From the NCBI GenBank assembly GCA_900541355.1, contig UQJU01000002.1, forward strand, positions 7,987 through 71,986: a stretch of DNA of 64,000 nt. The letters run 5' to 3'. A program made the translations under genes and the position numbers. The DNA comes from Candidatus Avelusimicrobium fimicolum (GTDB lineage Bacteria; Elusimicrobiota; Elusimicrobia; Elusimicrobiales; Elusimicrobiaceae). This document shows positions 14,801 through 52,009 of the stretch, piece by piece (positions within the stretch are counted from its first letter, which is position 1; each line of letters opens with the position of its first letter). A model generated the notes under the pieces. That model saw only the letters and a list, made by a program, of their open reading frames with translations, did not search any database and was not told the origin of the DNA.

Positions 14801-15470
14801 GTCTAGAAAACCACCGGCTAGGCCGGTGGTTCAGTAAGGTTCTACCGTTCCGCAAGACAAAAAAACTCCTTTTGTATAATAAATTGCCTGTGCTAGCAGG
14901 CAATTTAACAAAAGGAGGTCATTGTTATGTCCAATGACTTAAATAAGTTATCACATACAACGTGGAACTGCAAGTATCATATTGTATTTGCGCCAAAATA
15001 TCGTCGGCAAGTATTTTACCGTGAAAAGAGGGTGGAGATAGGGAAAATACTACGCAAATTATGCGAATGGAAAGGGGTAGAGATAGTAGAGGCGGAAGTA
15101 TGCCCTGATCATATCCATATGCTATTATCAATACCCCCGAAATACAGCGTAGGGAGTGTAATGAGGTACATAAAGGGGAAGAGTAGTTTATTAATATATG
15201 AGCGATGGAAGAATATGCAGTATAAGTATAAGAATCGGGAGTTTTGGTGCCGAGGGTATTATGTAGATACGGTAGGGAAGAACAAGGTAAAGATAGCAGA
15301 ATATATAAAAAATCAATTACGAGAGGACCAATTAGGAGCGCAACTGCCATTTGATAAGAGCCCGTGGGAAGGGAATAAGCGGAAGTGAACGCGAGCGACA
15401 GGATGTTGAGACGCGTTACACGCGTGGCTAGTAAGGAGGGGCAGGGCCCCTATGTGAAAAACCCCCGGCT
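14801..15470 (+). mobile_element. IS200/IS605-family insertion sequence (TnpA only)
   Basis: Contains a Y1 HuH transposase ORF flanked by subterminal hairpins (accaccggctaggccggtggt at the left end; acgcgttacacgcgt and ggggcagggcccc at the right end). GC is visibly lower than in surrounding DNA. Boundaries are approximate. Confidence 0.7.
14927..15388 (+). CDS. tnpA: IS200/IS605 family transposase TnpA (Y1 HuH)
   Basis: 153 aa. HuH motif HIHML is present, and the RGYYVDTVG region provides the catalytic Tyr. Highly typical IS200 TnpA sequence. Confidence 0.85.
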   Translation: MSNDLNKLSHTTWNCKYHIVFAPKYRRQVFYREKRVEIGKILRKLCEWKGVEIVEAEVCPDHIHMLLSIPPKYSVGSVMRYIKGKSSLLIYERWKNMQYKYKNREFWCRGYYVDTVGKNKVKIAEYIKNQLREDQLGAQLPFDKSPWEGNKRK

Positions 15471-23416: not shown

Positions 23417-23956
23417 CTAAAAACTCCACCACTCCGATTCTTCCTGTCGCGCACCCATTGCTTTACAAAACCGGGCACCCTCTTTGGCTGCTTGGGCATC
23501 CACCTCCGCGGTAGTAAAAGAACATTCCCGGCCAAAAAAACCTTTCCCATCCAAAAGCCACGGAATAAACGTAATACGAAAAGCGGCTGGAAGCGTATCA
23601 TCAACTCCTAAAACAGTAAGGAAAGGCTCCTTTATAATGATAAGTTCTGTTTTATTTTTTCTATATGTAGAAATAATTTCCGGGTTTGGGGAAAAATTGT
23701 GAAATTCGCCATTTGAGCCGGACACTCCATTTTGAAAACCACTAAATGAAATATCCAAATCTTCCCAGTTTTGGGTAAATGTACCATTTGCCAAATAATA
23801 CATCCGCTCCGCCTTGTAAATTTGCTCCACATAGGAACGCAAATTTCCATACTTTACCCTAGCAACAGCCTTTTGGTATTGGGGCACGGAAACCGACACC
23901 AAAATACCTAAAATCAAAACAACCACCAACATTTCTACAAGCGTAAAACCTTTCAT
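23417..23956 (-). CDS. Prepilin-type N-terminal cleavage/methylation domain protein (type IV pilin/pseudopilin-like)
   Basis: Start at MKGFTLVEMLVVVLILGILVSV, a class III signal with Gly-1, Phe+1, Glu+5. The upstream 31 codons of ORF 23417-24049 overlap the DtxR-family gene. Confidence 0.7.
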   Translation of the reverse strand: MKGFTLVEMLVVVLILGILVSVSVPQYQKAVARVKYGNLRSYVEQIYKAERMYYLANGTFTQNWEDLDISFSGFQNGVSGSNGEFHNFSPNPEIISTYRKNKTELIIIKEPFLTVLGVDDTLPAAFRITFIPWLLDGKGFFGRECSFTTAEVDAQAAKEGARFCKAMGARQEESEWWSF

Positions 23957-41470: not shown

Positions 41471-41571
41471 ATAATACCTCTTATATGTATTATACCAATT
41501 TGGCCGGAGCCCCGCCGGGCAGAAAACAGACTAGGCAAGGAACCGCGAAAATTAATAAAATAAAAGAATAT

Positions 41572-41656
41572 GGAGAGGTGGCCGAGTGGTTTAAGGCACT
41601 AGTCTTGAAAACTGGCGTGGGGCAACCCACCGAGGGTTCGAATCCCTCCCTCTCCG
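41572..41656 (+). tRNA. tRNA-Ser (anticodon TGA)
   Basis: Cloverleaf folded by hand. Acceptor GGAGAGG/CCTCTCC, anticodon stem CTAGT/ACTGG with loop CTTGAAA, long variable arm CGTGGGGCAACCCACCG, T-arm GAGGG-TTCGAAT-CCCTC. 85 nt. Confidence 0.9.
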
Positions 41657-41767
41657 TAGAAATTGAAAACCCTGCGCGAGCAGGATTTTTGATTTCTATG
41701 AAAATATGAGGTGCGGCATAAATGACTTTATGCCGCAGGGATTTGAAGCCCGCAATGTGGTGTGAGT

Positions 41768-41864
41768 TTGAGGCCATTGGCCGAAAGGCGAACACAATGA
41801 GGGCGGGCCCGGGCAAAATTTCCGTCAGGAAATTTATGCAGGGCGAATCCCTCCCTCTCCGTAG
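41768..41864 (+). pseudogene. Degraded tRNA-Ser-like copy, or att-site scar. Its 3' 21 nt (41844-41864) are identical to the tRNA-Ser 3' end (41639-41659).
   Basis: GAGGccatTGGCCGAaaGG resembles the tRNA-Ser D-arm region. cgaatccctccctctccgtag is an exact 21-nt match to the tRNA-Ser 3' end. The 5' acceptor strand is missing and there is a hairpin insert (aaatttccgtcaggaaattt), so it cannot fold as a tRNA. Confidence 0.4.
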
Positions 41865-41903
41865 TAAATTAAATTCCTCGCATATGCGAGGAATTTAATT
41901 TAC
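41864..41903. repeat. Perfect 40-nt palindrome
   Basis: gtaaattaaattcctcgcatatgcgaggaatttaatttac is identical to its reverse complement. It immediately follows the duplicated tRNA 3' segment. Confidence 0.8.
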
Positions 41904-42195
41904 AGGAGATTTGGAGCAACACCAACTGCTTGGTGTTGCGTAGGGATTCAAAAGGCGGAGCGATGTTTTTGTTTGTGCGCTTACGGTTCCGCGGCGCACA
42001 AGGCAAAAACCGCGAGCCTGGGCTGCATGCATTTTACGTCAGTAAAATGACCGGAAGCCGAAGCCCCCTTCGCACCTAGAACAAACTAGTTTTAGTTTGA
42101 AAAAGGACCGCTATTTTGGAATTGGAAAACCGGAAACTAGGGGCAGTGGCATTTTAACCTGGAATCCGAAACCCAGCACAAGATTTTCTTATTTT

Positions 42196-48726: not shown

Positions 48727-48794
48727 AAAACATTTTTGATGAAACTCCCCGGGCCCACGCCCGGGGTTTATTGTGAGCCGTATTTATAAAAGTC

Positions 48795-48962
48795 ATTCTG
48801 AACTTGTTTCAGAATCTACCTTTTGGGTTGTTAAAAACAACAGCAACAGCAAACAACACAAGCAGTAGATCCTGAACTAAATTCAGGATGACCTCTTTTT
48901 TTATAAAAGGCCTTTTTCCCCGTCATCCCCGAAGGATAGGCGACCCGCAGGGTTCGGAAACC
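48795..48962. repeat. Short palindromic intergenic repeats (attctgaacttgtttcagaat; gatcctgaactaaattcaggatgacc; ccccgaagg..ggttcggaaa)
   Basis: Same hairpin family as at 5018-5113 and 6686-6834. Confidence 0.7.
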
Positions 48963-49035
48963 TGTTATGCTGAAATCAGATTTACCTAAAATTTACCCCG
49001 GCACAAAAAGGCCGGGGTATTTCTCAAAAAGGATT

Positions 49036-49593
49036 TTAATGGGCAGAGGTTTCATAGCCCGTAACAGGCGGTGGGCAGGTACTTTCGCCATTATTACAGC
49101 AAGTTTCCACAGGCTCGCTAATGCCGCAGTAATCTGCGCATAATTCCCGTCCGCGTTCATTGTCGCCATAACATTGGGTCAAATCGCTTGCGTAAAAGCG
49201 GGTTAAGTGGTAATGATACAACAAACCGTCGTCATCTGCCTTGCCGTCAGCGGTGCGGGTGGCGGTGGCGAAACCGTCGCCATAAGTTACCACGTCCGAA
49301 AGAGCCACCGTAAAGCCGTTGCCCTGCGGGGCTTTGGTGTAAAAGGTGTCTCCGTCCCCCTCGTTGCCACCCGTAGCGGCATTGACGTCCAACCCGGCGG
49401 CACGAGCGGCATACCGTCCTATTTGCATATATTTGCGTGTCTGCGCCTGGGAAATGGAATCCAACAGCGTTACGGCTTCCATCATACGGGCGCGCTCTAC
49501 CGCCTTAAAATAAAGCGGCACAGCGGCCGAAGCCAAAATGCCCATAATGAGTACCACAACTAGCAGTTCTATTAAAGTAAACCCGTTTTTCAT
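49036..49593 (-). CDS. Prepilin-type N-terminal cleavage/methylation domain protein (pilin/pseudopilin-like), Cys-rich C-terminus
   Basis: MKNGFTLIELLVVVLIMGILASAAVPLYFKAVER ... C-terminus contains CADYCGI and multiple Cys. Confidence 0.75.
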   Translation of the reverse strand: MKNGFTLIELLVVVLIMGILASAAVPLYFKAVERARMMEAVTLLDSISQAQTRKYMQIGRYAARAAGLDVNAATGGNEGDGDTFYTKAPQGNGFTVALSDVVTYGDGFATATRTADGKADDDGLLYHYHLTRFYASDLTQCYGDNERGRELCADYCGISEPVETCCNNGESTCPPPVTGYETSAH

Positions 49594-49699
49594 ATTACTC
49601 CTTAAAACTTAAACTACATATAGTTTAGCAGTAAAAAAAGGCTTAATGCAAGTGGGTTGTTTTAGATAAAATTACAGAAAAGACGGCAACGGCATTAAC

Positions 49700-49790
49700 G
49701 ACGGATTCCCGAACGCTCCGCGCCGGCTACTTTCGGGAATGACGACTTGGAAGAATGGGACAGATCTCACCCCAGTTATACTTGGGAATG
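49700..49790. repeat. Short palindromic intergenic repeat (gattcccgaacgctccgcgccggctactttcgggaatgacgacttgg plus a gggaatgacgg partial)
   Basis: Core cgctccgcgccggc flanked by inverted arms ttcccgaa/ttcgggaa. Copies at 6741-6766 (inverted), 51126-51171, 51188-51226 and 51306-51322. Confidence 0.75.
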
Positions 49791-49819
49791 ACGGATATTC
49801 CACATTCAAAAACGGACAG

Positions 49820-49854
49820 AAAAAACCCCCGCTCTTCCGAGCGGGGGTTTTTGG
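49820..49854 (-). terminator. Terminator hairpin downstream of pilin-like gene 49870-50412
   Basis: aaaaaccccc-gctcttccga-gcgggggttttt. Confidence 0.65.
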
Positions 49855-49869
49855 TATTAACCAAATAAA

Positions 49870-50412
49870 TTACATCGTAGCAGAAGGAGCCGGACACGCA
49901 GTATTCGTACCCGTGCTGCAGCAAGAACCATTCGCAGTTAACGAGTCAATACCACAATAGTCGGCACAAAGCGCCGCACCGTTGGTATCCGTACCAGTGC
50001 AGGTGGTATCGCGGTTGGCATAGTAGCGGGTCAAGTTGTAACTATACTGCAAGGTGCTACCATTTTCCGGCACGCGGGTAGCGGTAGCTTTACCGCCGTT
50101 TTCACCACCATAAGCAGTACCAGATAAGTCAATTTTGAAGCCGTTTTTGCCTTCGCCTTTCGTGTAGTAAGTAGAACCAGTGGCACCTTTCGGGGCAACG
50201 TCCAACGCAGTATATGCAGTAGCATATTTGTTCACTTGCATATATTTGCGCTGTTGCGCATCAGCGATGTTCGCGAGCAAGGTTACGGCTTCCGTCATAC
50301 GGGAGCGTTCAACCGCTTTAAAATACTGCGGCATAGCCATAGCAGCCAAAATGCCGAGGATCAATACGACCACCAGCAATTCAATCAGGGTAAAACCCTT
50401 CTTATTATTCAT
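49870..50412 (-). CDS. Prepilin-type N-terminal cleavage/methylation domain protein (paralog)
   Basis: MNNKKGFTLIELLVVVLILGILAAMAMPQYFKAVERSRMTEAVTLL ... C-terminus CADYCGIDS ... CC. Confidence 0.75.
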   Translation of the reverse strand: MNNKKGFTLIELLVVVLILGILAAMAMPQYFKAVERSRMTEAVTLLANIADAQQRKYMQVNKYATAYTALDVAPKGATGSTYYTKGEGKNGFKIDLSGTAYGGENGGKATATRVPENGSTLQYSYNLTRYYANRDTTCTGTDTNGAALCADYCGIDSLTANGSCCSTGTNTACPAPSATM

Positions 50413-50525
50413 AAAACCTCCTACAGTTTTATATATAAGTTTAGTTTTATAGCCCCCCAGGGGCTACCTTTTCATTTTAATAAGGATTAAAACGGTTGTC
50501 AAGCCCTAAATTTTAAAATAGGACT

Positions 50526-51095
50526 TCAATTATTTTTTCGTTTTTCCGCTTCGGGGGTGGCGGGGCTTTCCTGTTGCGGGGTGCGGAGTTTTTCCAGTTC
50601 CACCGTCAATTTATTGCACAGGCGCTTGGCAATTTTGCCCTCGGCTTGGCAAGCAAAAATGCCCTCGGGCAACGACATTTCCAAGGTGTAACCCAACAGC
50701 CCGCCCTTGCGTACAGCCGTGGCGGTACCTTCCGTTTTTTCTTTATTTAATTGCAAATCAAGCGCAAAGCCGTCCTGGCCCGTGGCGGCATCTTTGACGG
50801 TAAACGCAAAAAAACGTGCATATCCCGCCTTGGGCGCAGCCCCTAAAAAGCCTTGCTTTTTAGGTATCCGGGGTAAGTGTTTGTCTAAGGCCGACCAATC
50901 GTAAGTATAGGTTTTGTGTTTAATAAAATATTGGTTTTCCGCCGTAGCCACATTTAAAAGAACGCTGACTGCCGCCGCGGCCTTGCTACCCTCCACGGTG
51001 CGTTCGTAAAACGGAAACAGCCCCGCGAGCAACAACAGGCCGATAAATAAAATAAGGCTAAAACTTTTAAGTTCAAATTTTTTCTTTTTCATTGA
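50526..51095 (-). CDS. Degenerate pilin-like/hypothetical membrane-anchored protein
   Basis: Probable start at MKKKKFELKSFSLILFIGLLLLAG, a hydrophobic N-terminal helix lacking the canonical G|FTLxE processing site. The 30-codon N-terminal extension of ORF 50526-51185 is a read-through of the intergenic repeat (AERSGI = gagcgttcgggaat). Confidence 0.5.
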   Translation of the reverse strand, partial: SMKKKKFELKSFSLILFIGLLLLAGLFPFYERTVEGSKAAAAVSVLLNVATAENQYFIKHKTYTYDWSALDKHLPRIPKKQGFLGAAPKAGYARFFAFTVKDAATGQDGFALDLQLNKEKTEGTATAVRKGGLLGYTLEMSLPEGIFACQAEGKIAKRLCNKLTVELEKLRTPQQESPATPEAEKRKNN

Positions 51096-51125
51096 ATTTT
51101 CCCCTTTTTTATAACAACAACGACA

Positions 51126-51322
51126 GATTCCCGAACGCTCCGCGCCGGCGGCACTCGGGGATGACGACTTGATAGAACTAGGCAAAAGCGAACGCTCCGC
51201 GCCGGCTACACTCGGGAATGACTCAGATGATACTGCTTTTATTAAAAAGTCATACTGGAAGGTTTCTGTCCAGTATCTATTCCTTGTTTTAACAACAACA
51301 GTTCCTAGACCGCTCCGCGCCG
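51126..51322. repeat. Three tandemly arranged copies or partials of the cgctccgcgccggc-core palindromic repeat
   Basis: gattcccgaacgctccgcgccggcggcactcggggatgacgacttg; gcgaacgctccgcgccggctacactcgggaatgactcag; ccgctccgcgccgtgcc. Confidence 0.75.
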
Positions 51323-51374
51323 TGCCAGCCCTTTACATCATACAGGCGGCCTAAAACAAAAGCCGCCCGTTCGG

Positions 51375-51941: not shown

Positions 51942-52009
51942 GAGAACCCCCGTTTAGAGCCACACTTACTGCACCAACGCCCACCACACAAGCCGCGCGA
52001 ACTCTTTAT

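Follow-up and report, generated by a model that had tools for sequence, protein, structure and literature searches.

Hairpin repeats in the window

The window analysed in our study is a 64-kb stretch (64,000 nucleotides) of contig UQJU01000002.1 from Candidatus Avelusimicrobium fimicolum, and our subject is a family of short palindromic repeats which occupies spacers around a cluster of four pilin-like genes and a gene for a secreted protein. One hairpin family was identified, with 10 intact and 4 decayed copies, and these are restricted to five of the 67 intergenic spacers of the window (4667-5196, 6520-6918, 48727-49035, 49594-49869 and 51093-51374), which are also five of its six longest intergenic regions. 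The copies are given below, where R1 is a covariance model built from 45 copies with a 9-nt loop, z compares the DNA fold with that of shuffled sequences, and unit B is the long-loop form of the repeat.

5008-5052, minus strand: intact unit, stem ATTCCCGA/TCGGGAAT, 9-nt loop ctacgacct (R1 60.5 bits, fold z -3.6)
5076-5120, plus strand: intact unit, stem ATCCCCGA, loop cagaaacac (R1 55 bits, fold z -3.4)
6677-6717, plus strand: intact unit of the 5-nt-loop subfamily, gtag-ATCCTGAA-acaag-TTCAGGAT-gacctctttttt, T-rich on both sides (R1 20.4 bits, fold z -3.9)
6722-6778, minus strand: unit B, ATTCCCGA-acgctccgcgccggctgacac-TCGGAAAT, one stem mismatch, exact core (R1 21.9 bits, fold no better than shuffles)
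6797-6841, plus strand: intact unit, stem ATCCTGGA, loop ctacgactt (R1 63.9 bits, fold z -3.6)
48785-48825, minus strand: intact unit, ATTCTGAA-acaag-TTCAGAAT (R1 19.2 bits, fold z -2.6)
48859-48899, plus strand: intact unit, gtag-ATCCTGAA-ctaaa-TTCAGGAT-gacctcttttttt (R1 27 bits, fold z -4.6)
48921-48964, minus strand: decayed long-loop unit, GGTTTCCGAA-ccctgcgggtcgcctatcc-TTCGGGGATGAC, no hairpin fold, recognised by strain alignment
49695-49750, plus strand: intact unit B, ATTCCCGAA-cgctccgcgccggctac-TTTCGGGAAT, about 100 nt upstream of the pilin gene 49036-49593(-) (R1 33.8 bits, fold z -2.3, arm pattern of the Neisseria repeat NTS)
49760-49794, plus strand: decayed unit, of which the 3' arm TTGGGAATGAC is the only recognisable part, aligning to fuller copies in the strain loci L161 and L163
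51117-51172, plus strand: unit B, ATTCCCGA...TCGGGGAT, directly upstream of the pilin-like gene 50526-51092(-) (R1 34.3 bits)
51189-51222, plus strand: copy of unit B that has lost its 5' arm, exact core
51242-51286, minus strand: intact unit, ATACTGGA-cagaaacct-TCCAGTAT (R1 49.5 bits, fold z -4.4)
51291-51326, plus strand: remnant aacaacaacaGTTCCTAGAccgctccgcgccgtgcc, core with 2 mismatches (R1 8.5 bits)

A scan for hairpins of the form G/AT-stem...stem-AT/GAC found 15 matches in the window, compared with 2.0 +/- 1.4 after dinucleotide shuffling, and 10 of the 15 belong to the family. The covariance model, applied to the whole 64 kb, recovered the identical 10 copies at E<=0.01 (19-64 bits) and, beyond them, nothing at E<1; the four decayed copies were recognised by eye and by alignment to other strains. 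Unit B consists of the ATTCCCGA stem and a 20-21-nt loop holding the core CGCTCCGCGCCGGC, which is present in 4 exact copies in the window and in 9 matches at up to 2 mismatches, against 0.95 expected. The model and the hairpin scan bear out the sequence-only reading, in which a family of short palindromic repeats had been noticed from the letters of the window, and all five places named there do contain repeats. Its further points, that the copies in this window are non-coding and that they are not CRISPR, also hold, the latter in view of their mixed orientation, irregular spacing and variable stems. Its separate units A and B turned out to be one family in which the loop alone differs, and its statement that repeats lie in every spacer between the pilin genes was too broad, as none is present in 50413-50525 or 51942-52009.

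The plan of the unit is (aacaaca)G-AT+6 bp / loop / 6 bp+AT-GAC, in which an A/C-rich linker (aacaaca) precedes the invariant G; on the opposite strand it is read as NGTC-AT(6)-loop-(6)AT-C-YRN. In all 45 copies, pairs 1 and 2 of the 8-bp stem are A-T and T-A, and the C-G at position 4 is likewise constant, while positions 3, 5, 6 and 7 covary (CG/UA/AU, GC/CG). The stem cells are 99% paired against 29-61% when the partner column is slid, and since the copies were pre-selected for pairing, the number of pair types is the informative figure. The stem is found as ATTCCCGA, ATCCCCGA, ATCCTGAA, ATCCTGGA, ATTCTGAA and ATACTGGA, with the 3' arm matching each change. Among the intact window copies, the loop is of 5 nt in three, of 9 nt in four and of 14-21 nt in three, according to stem extension. 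One loop (for example cagaaacMY or ctacgacYt) can be combined with several stems, and one stem with several loops, hence stem and loop behave as separate modules.

Conservation of the flanks was also read from an independently anchored set (n=40), in which the copies were picked by the inner 6 bp and the loop motif only. The outer G-AT...AT-GAC is kept in 39-40 of these 40 copies and its conservation is therefore not a search artefact. Of the 40 bases before GTC, 24 are C, 10 are T, 4 are A and 2 are G, and the first base of the tail is C in 39 of 40, followed by T or C and then mostly by G (CTG, CCG, CTA). On the G side, the final G of the tetranucleotide alone is invariant (ACAG, ACGG, GTAG, CTGG and others), GTAG before the stem being confined to the 5-nt-loop subfamily. 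Short-loop units are predicted to fold as DNA hairpins, with z of -2.6 to -4.6 against shuffles.

The long loops resemble the 9-nt loops to which one of two GC-rich inserts of some 12 nt has been added, gctccgcgccgg and ccctgcgggccgcc, which at times occur together (6722-6778, 49695-49750 and 51117-51222 in the window; L156, L159 and L161 among the strains). Moreover, T-runs on both strands were observed in the 5-nt-loop subfamily (gtagATCCTGAA..TTCAGGATgacctcttttt; 6687-6707 and 48869-48889), which was flagged as terminator-like in both directions, and this ATCCTGAA subfamily may double as a bidirectional terminator or insulator.

Class of the repeats and candidate partner gene

It is probable that these repeats are an Elusimicrobiaceae family of the CGTC-tagged repetitive extragenic palindromic (REP) sequences, or Ssn-related motifs (SRM), which is similar to the dRS3/NTS repeats of Neisseria, is assembled in arrays like the Neisseria intergenic mosaic elements (NIME) and is targeted by an Ssn nuclease. 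The class itself is already known, and Ssn/repeat pairs were already stated to be widespread by its authors; this family adds the phylum Elusimicrobiota, longer modular loops and array formation. Elusimicrobia are absent from the five phyla listed for CGTC REPs, which are described with an unpaired CGTC or TGTC tag, stems of 8-9 bp almost invariably opening with complementary AT, and a 3-nt tail (PMC3733652). In that classification, Neisseria dRS3 is CGTC-1 and the Rickettsia palindromic elements (RPE) RPE-4 and RPE-6 belong to the CGTC class, which, in contrast to the GTAG REPs, lacks a dedicated transposase and is never found beside Y1 genes (PMC3733652). The 28-nt NTS, which is extended from dRS3, reads CGTCATTCCCGCGMAVGCGGGAATCYRG (Chenal 2025, PMC11893778). 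SsnA is a single-domain GIY-YIG protein by which NTS is bound and cut only as single-stranded DNA (ssDNA) and on one strand only; binding depends above all on the C that directly follows the palindrome, and cleavage on the 3 nt that precede it, and ssn genes are typically flanked by their own repeats (PMC11893778).

The invariant GTC and C of the present units are the bases that are functionally critical for SsnA in Neisseria. By the NTS-arm pattern, the window units 5015-5043 and 49704-49743 read GTCATTCCCG...CGGGAATC, and the unit 5008-5052, written in the CGTC orientation, is CGTC-ATTCCCGA-aggtcgtag-TCGGGAAT-C-tgt, with the arms of NTS.

A candidate partner gene is present in relatives, whose loci are numbered with L in the following. 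Ssn-like open reading frames (ORFs) of about 91-96 aa were found in 7 of the 120 repeat-selected metagenome loci listed (751 kb), namely L059, L078, L081, L083, L123, L127 and L149, which is about one per 107 kb in these repeat-selected loci against about one expected per genome. Five Ssn-like proteins of 91-96 aa were checked against Pfam and all are GIY-YIG (E 8e-14 to 2e-16). In L083, L123, L127 and L149, the gene is directly adjoined at either end by hairpins of the present plan whose loops are of 9 nt; in the Elusimicrobiaceae-type contigs L059 and L151-L154 it lies between cGTC-ACCCTGAA-cttgt-TTCAGGGT-C upstream and an inverted copy downstream, and in L155 two units lie immediately downstream and none upstream. 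L059 shares unit subfamilies and linkers with the relatives of the window and its pilin is close to the second pilin of the window, while close homologues of its Ssn-like protein (78% and 69% identity) are present in syntenic pilin-rich Elusimicrobiaceae contigs. The L059 protein (2433-2717) has 94 aa, a Pfam GIY-YIG match at E 2e-16 and, read from its sequence, Y6, Y17 and E64, which are the positions whose mutation inactivates the Neisseria (Nm) SsnA (PMC11893778). A comparison of the Ssn-like protein with PDB sequences and NCBIfam gave only distant GIY-YIG relatives and no named family. A hairpin-ssn-hairpin cassette of about 0.5 kb is inserted between the response-regulator and TPR (tetratricopeptide repeat) genes in L151 (5853-6351) and L059, and this site is empty in three related species (L169 4986-4993, L170 4903-4946 and L171 4986-4993; gap 8-44 nt). 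Being present or absent at one junction, the repeat-ssn-repeat unit appears to be an insertion itself.

In the sequence-only reading a dedicated partner protein had been proposed, with a REP-associated tyrosine transposase (RAYT) or an IS200-like TnpA to be looked for. The partner finds a candidate in related genomes, of the GIY-YIG Ssn type, and the Y1 enzyme does not: a phmmer search with the IS200 TnpA of the window against six-frame ORFs from 1.08 Mb of repeat-bearing DNA returned the self-match only, so that the window's own IS200 is the sole element of this kind there. It is complete (14809-15400), with Rfam STnc490 at 14809-14914 and a Pfam Y1_Tnp gene at 14927-15388, and it is unrelated to the repeats, its end hairpins being different as had been noted.

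Other classes were considered and set aside. The earlier description of the repeats as REP-like mosaics (bacterial interspersed mosaic elements, BIME) or as miniature inverted-repeat transposable elements (MITE) stands for the former and not for the latter, since there is a single hairpin core of 21-37 nt with no terminal inverted repeats and target-site duplication; no duplications are found at the borders of insertions and deletions among strains, which fall inside units. Integron attC sites were rejected because the RYYYAAC/GTTRRRY pair is absent on reading the sequence, and a DNA-uptake sequence because structure rather than a fixed sequence is conserved. Weak Pfam matches to ComP_DUS, the domain of the Neisseria pilin that is the receptor of the DNA-uptake sequence, were observed for the pilins 49036-49593, 49870-50412 and 50526-51092 (one at 27.7 against a cut-off of 27.3 bits), and these probably reflect the N-terminus common to type IV pilins.

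Arrays in strains and relatives and their pilin-like genes

A one-genome-per-species scan with the unit-B core and arm gave 30 loci. Fourteen of them come from Elusimicrobia metagenome-assembled genomes (MAGs), which are UBA5880, a Candidatus Avelusimicrobium sp. and two contigs binned as Muribaculaceae, and the remaining 16 are chance matches in high-GC organisms. Over 88 kb, the 14 related loci contain 76 clustered units whose orientation alternates, and a metagenome scan with a degenerate 9-nt-loop pattern gave at least 120 loci of 34-58% GC with at least 325 units in 751 kb; both sets were chosen for holding repeats and these unit densities are not genome-wide. Since units occur in other Elusimicrobia and in metagenome contigs, the family is confined neither to this region or organism nor to the 50 kb over which it had first been noticed. 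Avelusimicrobium is a member of Elusimicrobiaceae, and the UvrA homologues of the related contigs are labelled Avelusimicrobium or Elusimicrobiaceae. The loci L015 and L030 (CAVKWQ01, from the MAG labelled Muribaculaceae) carry typical Elusimicrobial arrays and pilin leaders and are probably mis-binned.

Ten conspecific loci (L156-L165) were fetched by an identical 269-aa protein next to the pilin cluster. Identity to the window is 93-100% for their housekeeping neighbours and 91-96% for the adjacent 339-aa protein, and the three spacers of the cluster that carry repeats differ in length as follows.

48727-49035: spacer of 309 nt in the window, 216-387 nt in other strains
49594-49869: spacer of 276 nt in the window, 134-372 nt in other strains
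51093-51374: spacer of 282 nt in the window, 106-590 nt in other strains

Strain alignments showed the replacement of entire haplotypes, with the borders of deletions and duplications inside units and often in unit-B cores (51189-51222 among them). Loops are swapped at fixed positions, where a given stem has a loop of 9 nt or of 21 nt depending on the strain. At the position of the decayed copy 48921-48964, other strains have an intact ATCCCCGA unit with a 9-nt or 21-nt loop; in L163 the loop of the unit 48785-48825 holds a 57-nt insertion with another hairpin nested inside; and the remnant 51291-51326 is the fixed right end of the array that measures 106-590 nt elsewhere. Seven of the ten strain loci are without any unit in the spacer 49594-49869 upstream of the pilin 49036-49593, and this pilin stays 92-97% identical in the strains lacking its upstream units, hence its expression does not depend on the units. 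In 7 of 8 strains, the pilin 49870-50412, which is second in the cluster and placed between two arrays, shows an identity of only 60-68% against 91-100% for the flanking genes, and the left breakpoint of the replaced pilin lies at the edge of the array upstream of the pilin 49036-49593. In Neisseria, NIME arrays have fixed sites, variable content, more divergent adjacent genes and embedded pilS loci, and they were regarded as Neisseria-specific (Bentley 2007, PMC1797815). By analogy, the strain variation of the present arrays and the pilin replacement are seen as mirroring those arrays. The earlier suggestion that the repeats are recombination substrates for pilin shuffling is given indirect support by this comparison.

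Pilin-like genes make up 4 of the 8 genes flanking repeats and 1 of the 56 other genes of the window (Fisher p = 5e-4), in agreement with the enrichment that had been claimed beside pilin and secreted-protein genes; the fifth pilin-like gene, 23417-23950, has no repeats. The four clustered pilins of the window have short leaders with the units outside their frames, except that the reading frame of 50526-51092(-) is open through the unit B 51117-51172 as far as a TTG at 51185. In relatives, arrays often lie between a conserved ATG (KGEK-M-K[GE]F) and the G|FTLIELL cleavage site. A unit is present at most 200 nt upstream of the cleavage site in 22 of 47 distinct pilin-like genes, and 18 of these 22 have no stop in the pilin frame across the units, against 0 and 1 of 22 for the other two frames (p = 2e-11). 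The sole in-frame start with a ribosome-binding site usually precedes the units, so that the implied leaders have 42-89 residues, and the translated units include SSPKVSVGD, RFPTTTLGND, RFPNAPRRQALGND and GHPEFISGST. Examples of in-frame units and of one pilin in three near-identical contigs are the following.

L003 5390-6016, minus strand: pilin-like gene with in-frame unit
L010 1154-1930, plus strand: pilin-like gene with in-frame unit
L016 6285-6953, plus strand: pilin-like gene with in-frame unit
L024 940-1572, minus strand: pilin-like gene with in-frame unit
L027 1532-2347, minus strand: pilin-like gene with in-frame unit
L151 314-823: pilin with a 10-aa leader (MKNVTMRRLG|GFTLIE)
L152 252-878: the same pilin with a 39-aa insertion
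L153 241-879: the same pilin with a different 43-aa insertion

The insertions of L152 and L153 stand directly after the first 'GF', and that of L152 holds a unit and ends (..SGSTSWVVSR) like the leaders of paralogous pilins. To judge from these sequences, this suggests an exchange between the 5' ends of pilin paralogues.

Two further elements lie beside the 440-aa secreted-protein gene, 5197-6519.

6520-6680, minus strand: upstream module of about 170 nt with an A/T-rich stretch, Shine-Dalgarno aaggag and ATG AAR (blastn and alignment of 7 copies)
5119-5181, plus strand: 63-nt segment, 97% identical to 6833-6895, with linker and terminator hairpin

The module separates the repeat array from the start of the secreted-protein gene, and it also stands ahead of many pilin genes in relatives, with aaggag and ATG AAA GRR TTT (copies at L001 5107-5285, L002 6788-6951, L003 6016-6185, L010 981-1171, L016 6123-6290 and L024 1559-1740). 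It shows a T-run, a small hairpin cccggatgtatccg, aaggag and ATG AAR, and looks like a common promoter/5' untranslated region (UTR) cassette. The 63-nt segment thus forms a direct repeat around the secreted-protein gene, and its two copies adjoin hairpin units that have neither stem nor loop in common.

Some other features were observed in the window. A scan of it at the Rfam gathering threshold returned only RNase P, 4 tRNAs and the IS200 small RNA, and permissive Rfam scans of 4667-5196 and 41560-42100 gave nothing credible. The segment 4752-4911(+) begins with TTGCTG-17 nt-TATAAT (4752-4780), and about 100 nt further on comes a strong terminator hairpin (4881-4908); the segment, which contains no ORF and matches no Rfam family, is possibly a small RNA. 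The segment 41658-41862, about 200 nt downstream of a tRNA-Ser, is 80-90% conserved in L002 (5833-6061) and L001 (2829-3020), with no ORF and no Rfam family above threshold, and in L002 a repeat array begins just past its counterpart.

Proposed mechanism, rival explanations and known systems

By analogy with Neisseria, a unit that becomes single-stranded, in incoming transforming DNA or in replication or repair intermediates, would form its hairpin, which would be bound by a small single-domain GIY-YIG nuclease (Ssn) and cut just upstream of GTC. Units in both orientations would build mosaic NIME-like arrays around monocistronic surface-protein genes. Such arrays would be hot spots of breakage and recombination, which grow, contract and interchange their loops, and the genes lying between arrays would be exchanged among strains. 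From the Neisseria case we infer that an active Ssn may be present in this genome, may cut these units and may thereby drive their variability, in place of plain homologous recombination between repeats.

Several points weigh against assigning the repeats to this class and against an Ssn acting on them. The published SRM string HGTCWYN(0-2)YYVSBRHN(0-5)WNVSBRGN(0-2)RNCYNB has 0 matches on both strands of the window, which on a hand check is due to loops above the allowed length and to several differing stem positions; likewise, the loops described for the CGTC REP superfamily are of 4-5 nt and those found here are mostly of 9-21 nt, in which the variant deviates and the plan does not. The long-loop unit B folds less convincingly than the short-loop units (z -2.3, -0.1 and +0.25). 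The Ssn-type label of the protein is putative and stands for a Pfam match, size and residues. GIY-YIG motif scans of the window and the first 14 related loci found none, tblastx of the ssn loci against the window gave no synteny and the window overlaps neither type of ssn locus of the relatives, and the further Ssn homologues looked up belong to other MAGs, none being tied to this species. Moreover, the close Ssn homologues are all on contigs of at most 44 kb, against up to 962 kb in this species, and this contrast suggests that ssn may be more divergent in this species, or missing. The variability of the arrays could come from ordinary recombination between repeats without a nuclease, and the transformation step of the analogy would require natural competence of these bacteria.

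There is a small but real chance that the repeats are relic or selfish sequences without a current enzyme, which change only by homologous recombination and slippage between similar units and are clustered near pilins because the spacers and leaders there tolerate insertions. The decay of 4 of the 14 window copies would agree with this, as would the position of the indel borders in repeated cores, which repeat-mediated deletion and duplication predicts, and there is no ssn in the window or tied to this species; a similar idea, of relic or selfish status, was raised for CGTC REPs by Di Nocera 2013 (PMC3733652). However, the strict unpaired G/GAC and the stem pairing are kept across subfamilies and several genera, which points to continuing selection or to a copier that reads the hairpin, and unit-flanked ssn-like genes persist in related lineages. 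A role at the RNA level, in which the units are terminators, insulators, mRNA-stabilising 3' hairpins or 5'-UTR regulators of pilin genes, is unlikely. It would fit their placement between the terminator of one gene and the start of the next, the T-runs of the ATCCTGAA subfamily, terminator-like on both strands, and the many units in transcribed and probably translated leaders of relatives. Yet the units occur in both orientations, often past a canonical terminator and also between convergent genes (48785-48964), and a U-tract is absent from most of them; their conserved unpaired bases match the contacts of SsnA with DNA, SsnA being inactive on RNA (PMC11893778), and 7 of 10 strains keep the pilin 49036-49593, as described above, without its upstream units. 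The mRNA-stabilising or insulating hairpins of the sequence-only reading may hold for one subfamily at most, the terminator-like ATCCTGAA.

The alternation of orientation in BIME-like hairpin clusters, the GTAG before the 5-nt-loop subfamily and the Y1_Tnp gene within the window could also be taken to mean classical REP/REPIN sequences mobilised by RAYT, a Y1 HUH transposase. This is highly improbable, because the invariant tag is GTC on the other side, with only the final G invariant on the GTAG side, and the Y1 gene of the window is a canonical IS200 with an Rfam STnc490 5' match and unrelated hairpins. There is no other Y1 gene in 1.08 Mb (phmmer) against 7 Ssn-like genes, and CGTC REPs have never been reported to flank Y1 genes (PMC3733652). 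Finally, the open pilin frame in relatives (18 of 22, against 1 of 44 for the other two frames together) raises the question of whether the repeats are conserved as peptide modules, that is as parts of pilin leaders, rather than as a DNA structure. We regard this as barely conceivable, since units stand in both orientations and at clearly non-coding sites, including all the window copies, compensatory changes of the stem at the DNA level alter the encoded residues, and the units flanking ssn genes are intergenic.

Within the preferred assignment to Ssn-targeted CGTC REPs, a more speculative step can be offered with considerable doubt, namely that the repeats have invaded pilin genes in frame and that the Ssn/repeat pair is a dedicated system which marks, breaks and reshuffles the very large pilin-like family of the phylum. 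If true, this would be an independent, convergent counterpart of the pilE/pilS-NIME arrangement of Neisseria with a translated component in addition. The in-frame occupation of prepilin leaders, seen in the related loci and not in the window, is to our knowledge undescribed. If the leader insertions are translated, they would be an unusual instance in which repeat DNA is tolerated since the encoded segment is removed by prepilin peptidase.

Our study extends repeats of dRS3/NTS type and NIME-like mosaic arrays to Elusimicrobiota, and the link to pilins and the strain-level replacement of genes recur in a phylum distant from Neisseria. It also provides a candidate partner enzyme, the 94-aa GIY-YIG protein, together with candidate substrates on which the specificity of a new Ssn nuclease could be examined; as tools for ssDNA, such nucleases attract interest of their own. 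For the annotation of Elusimicrobia genomes, it is of use to know that these arrays interrupt assemblies, enlarge the intergenic regions and give rise to misleading long ORFs and to 'long' pilin precursors.

In comparison with known systems, IS200/IS605 elements also have subterminal ssDNA hairpins, but the hairpin sequences are unrelated and the element is autonomous. The GTAG REPs, BIMEs and REPINs of E. coli and Pseudomonas are likewise extragenic palindromes read as ssDNA hairpins with an unpaired tag, they form arrays of alternating orientation, and their single-copy partner gene lies between its own repeats; the tag and the partner enzyme are different, an HUH Y1 transposase there and a GIY-YIG nuclease here. 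The CGTC REP superfamily agrees with the present family in the NGTC tag, the 8-bp stem with A-T at positions 1-2, the C-initial tail, heterogeneous subfamilies per genome, the lack of a Y1 transposase and some intragenic members. Its tail consensus is CCA whereas CYG/CTA is found here, and clustering, which is rare there except in Neisseria and Wolbachia, is the rule here. In Rickettsia, palindromic elements are reportedly inserted in frame in protein-coding genes (Ogata and colleagues, 2000). They resemble the present case as in-frame CGTC-class palindromes tolerated in ORFs, here the prepilin leaders of relatives; they differ in being of about 100-150 bp and scattered over many kinds of genes, whereas here the insertions are concentrated in the cleaved leader of pilin-like proteins and the window copies are intergenic.

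The Neisseria system is compared last. Its host phylum is other than Elusimicrobiota, and the published NTS/SRM patterns do not fit the units described here. The loops here are of 5, 9 or 18-21 nt against 4 in dRS3/NTS and are modular with GC-rich 12-nt inserts, the linkers are short and A/C-rich (aacaac) against RS elements of 50-150 bp in NIMEs, and many units lie within reading frames in relatives against 2% of NTS inside genes. On the other hand, the (C)GTC tag, the AT-initial stem and the C after the palindrome are shared with dRS3/NTS (CGTCATTCCCG...CGGGAATC), and the identical arm ATTCCCG/CGGGAAT is often present here. As in NIME arrays, the units form clusters of mixed orientation with short linkers beside surface-protein genes including pilin loci, length and content vary among strains and the adjoining genes are unusually divergent. 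Further, as for ssn in Neisseria, a single-domain GIY-YIG gene of about 94 aa lies between inverted units in the relatives.

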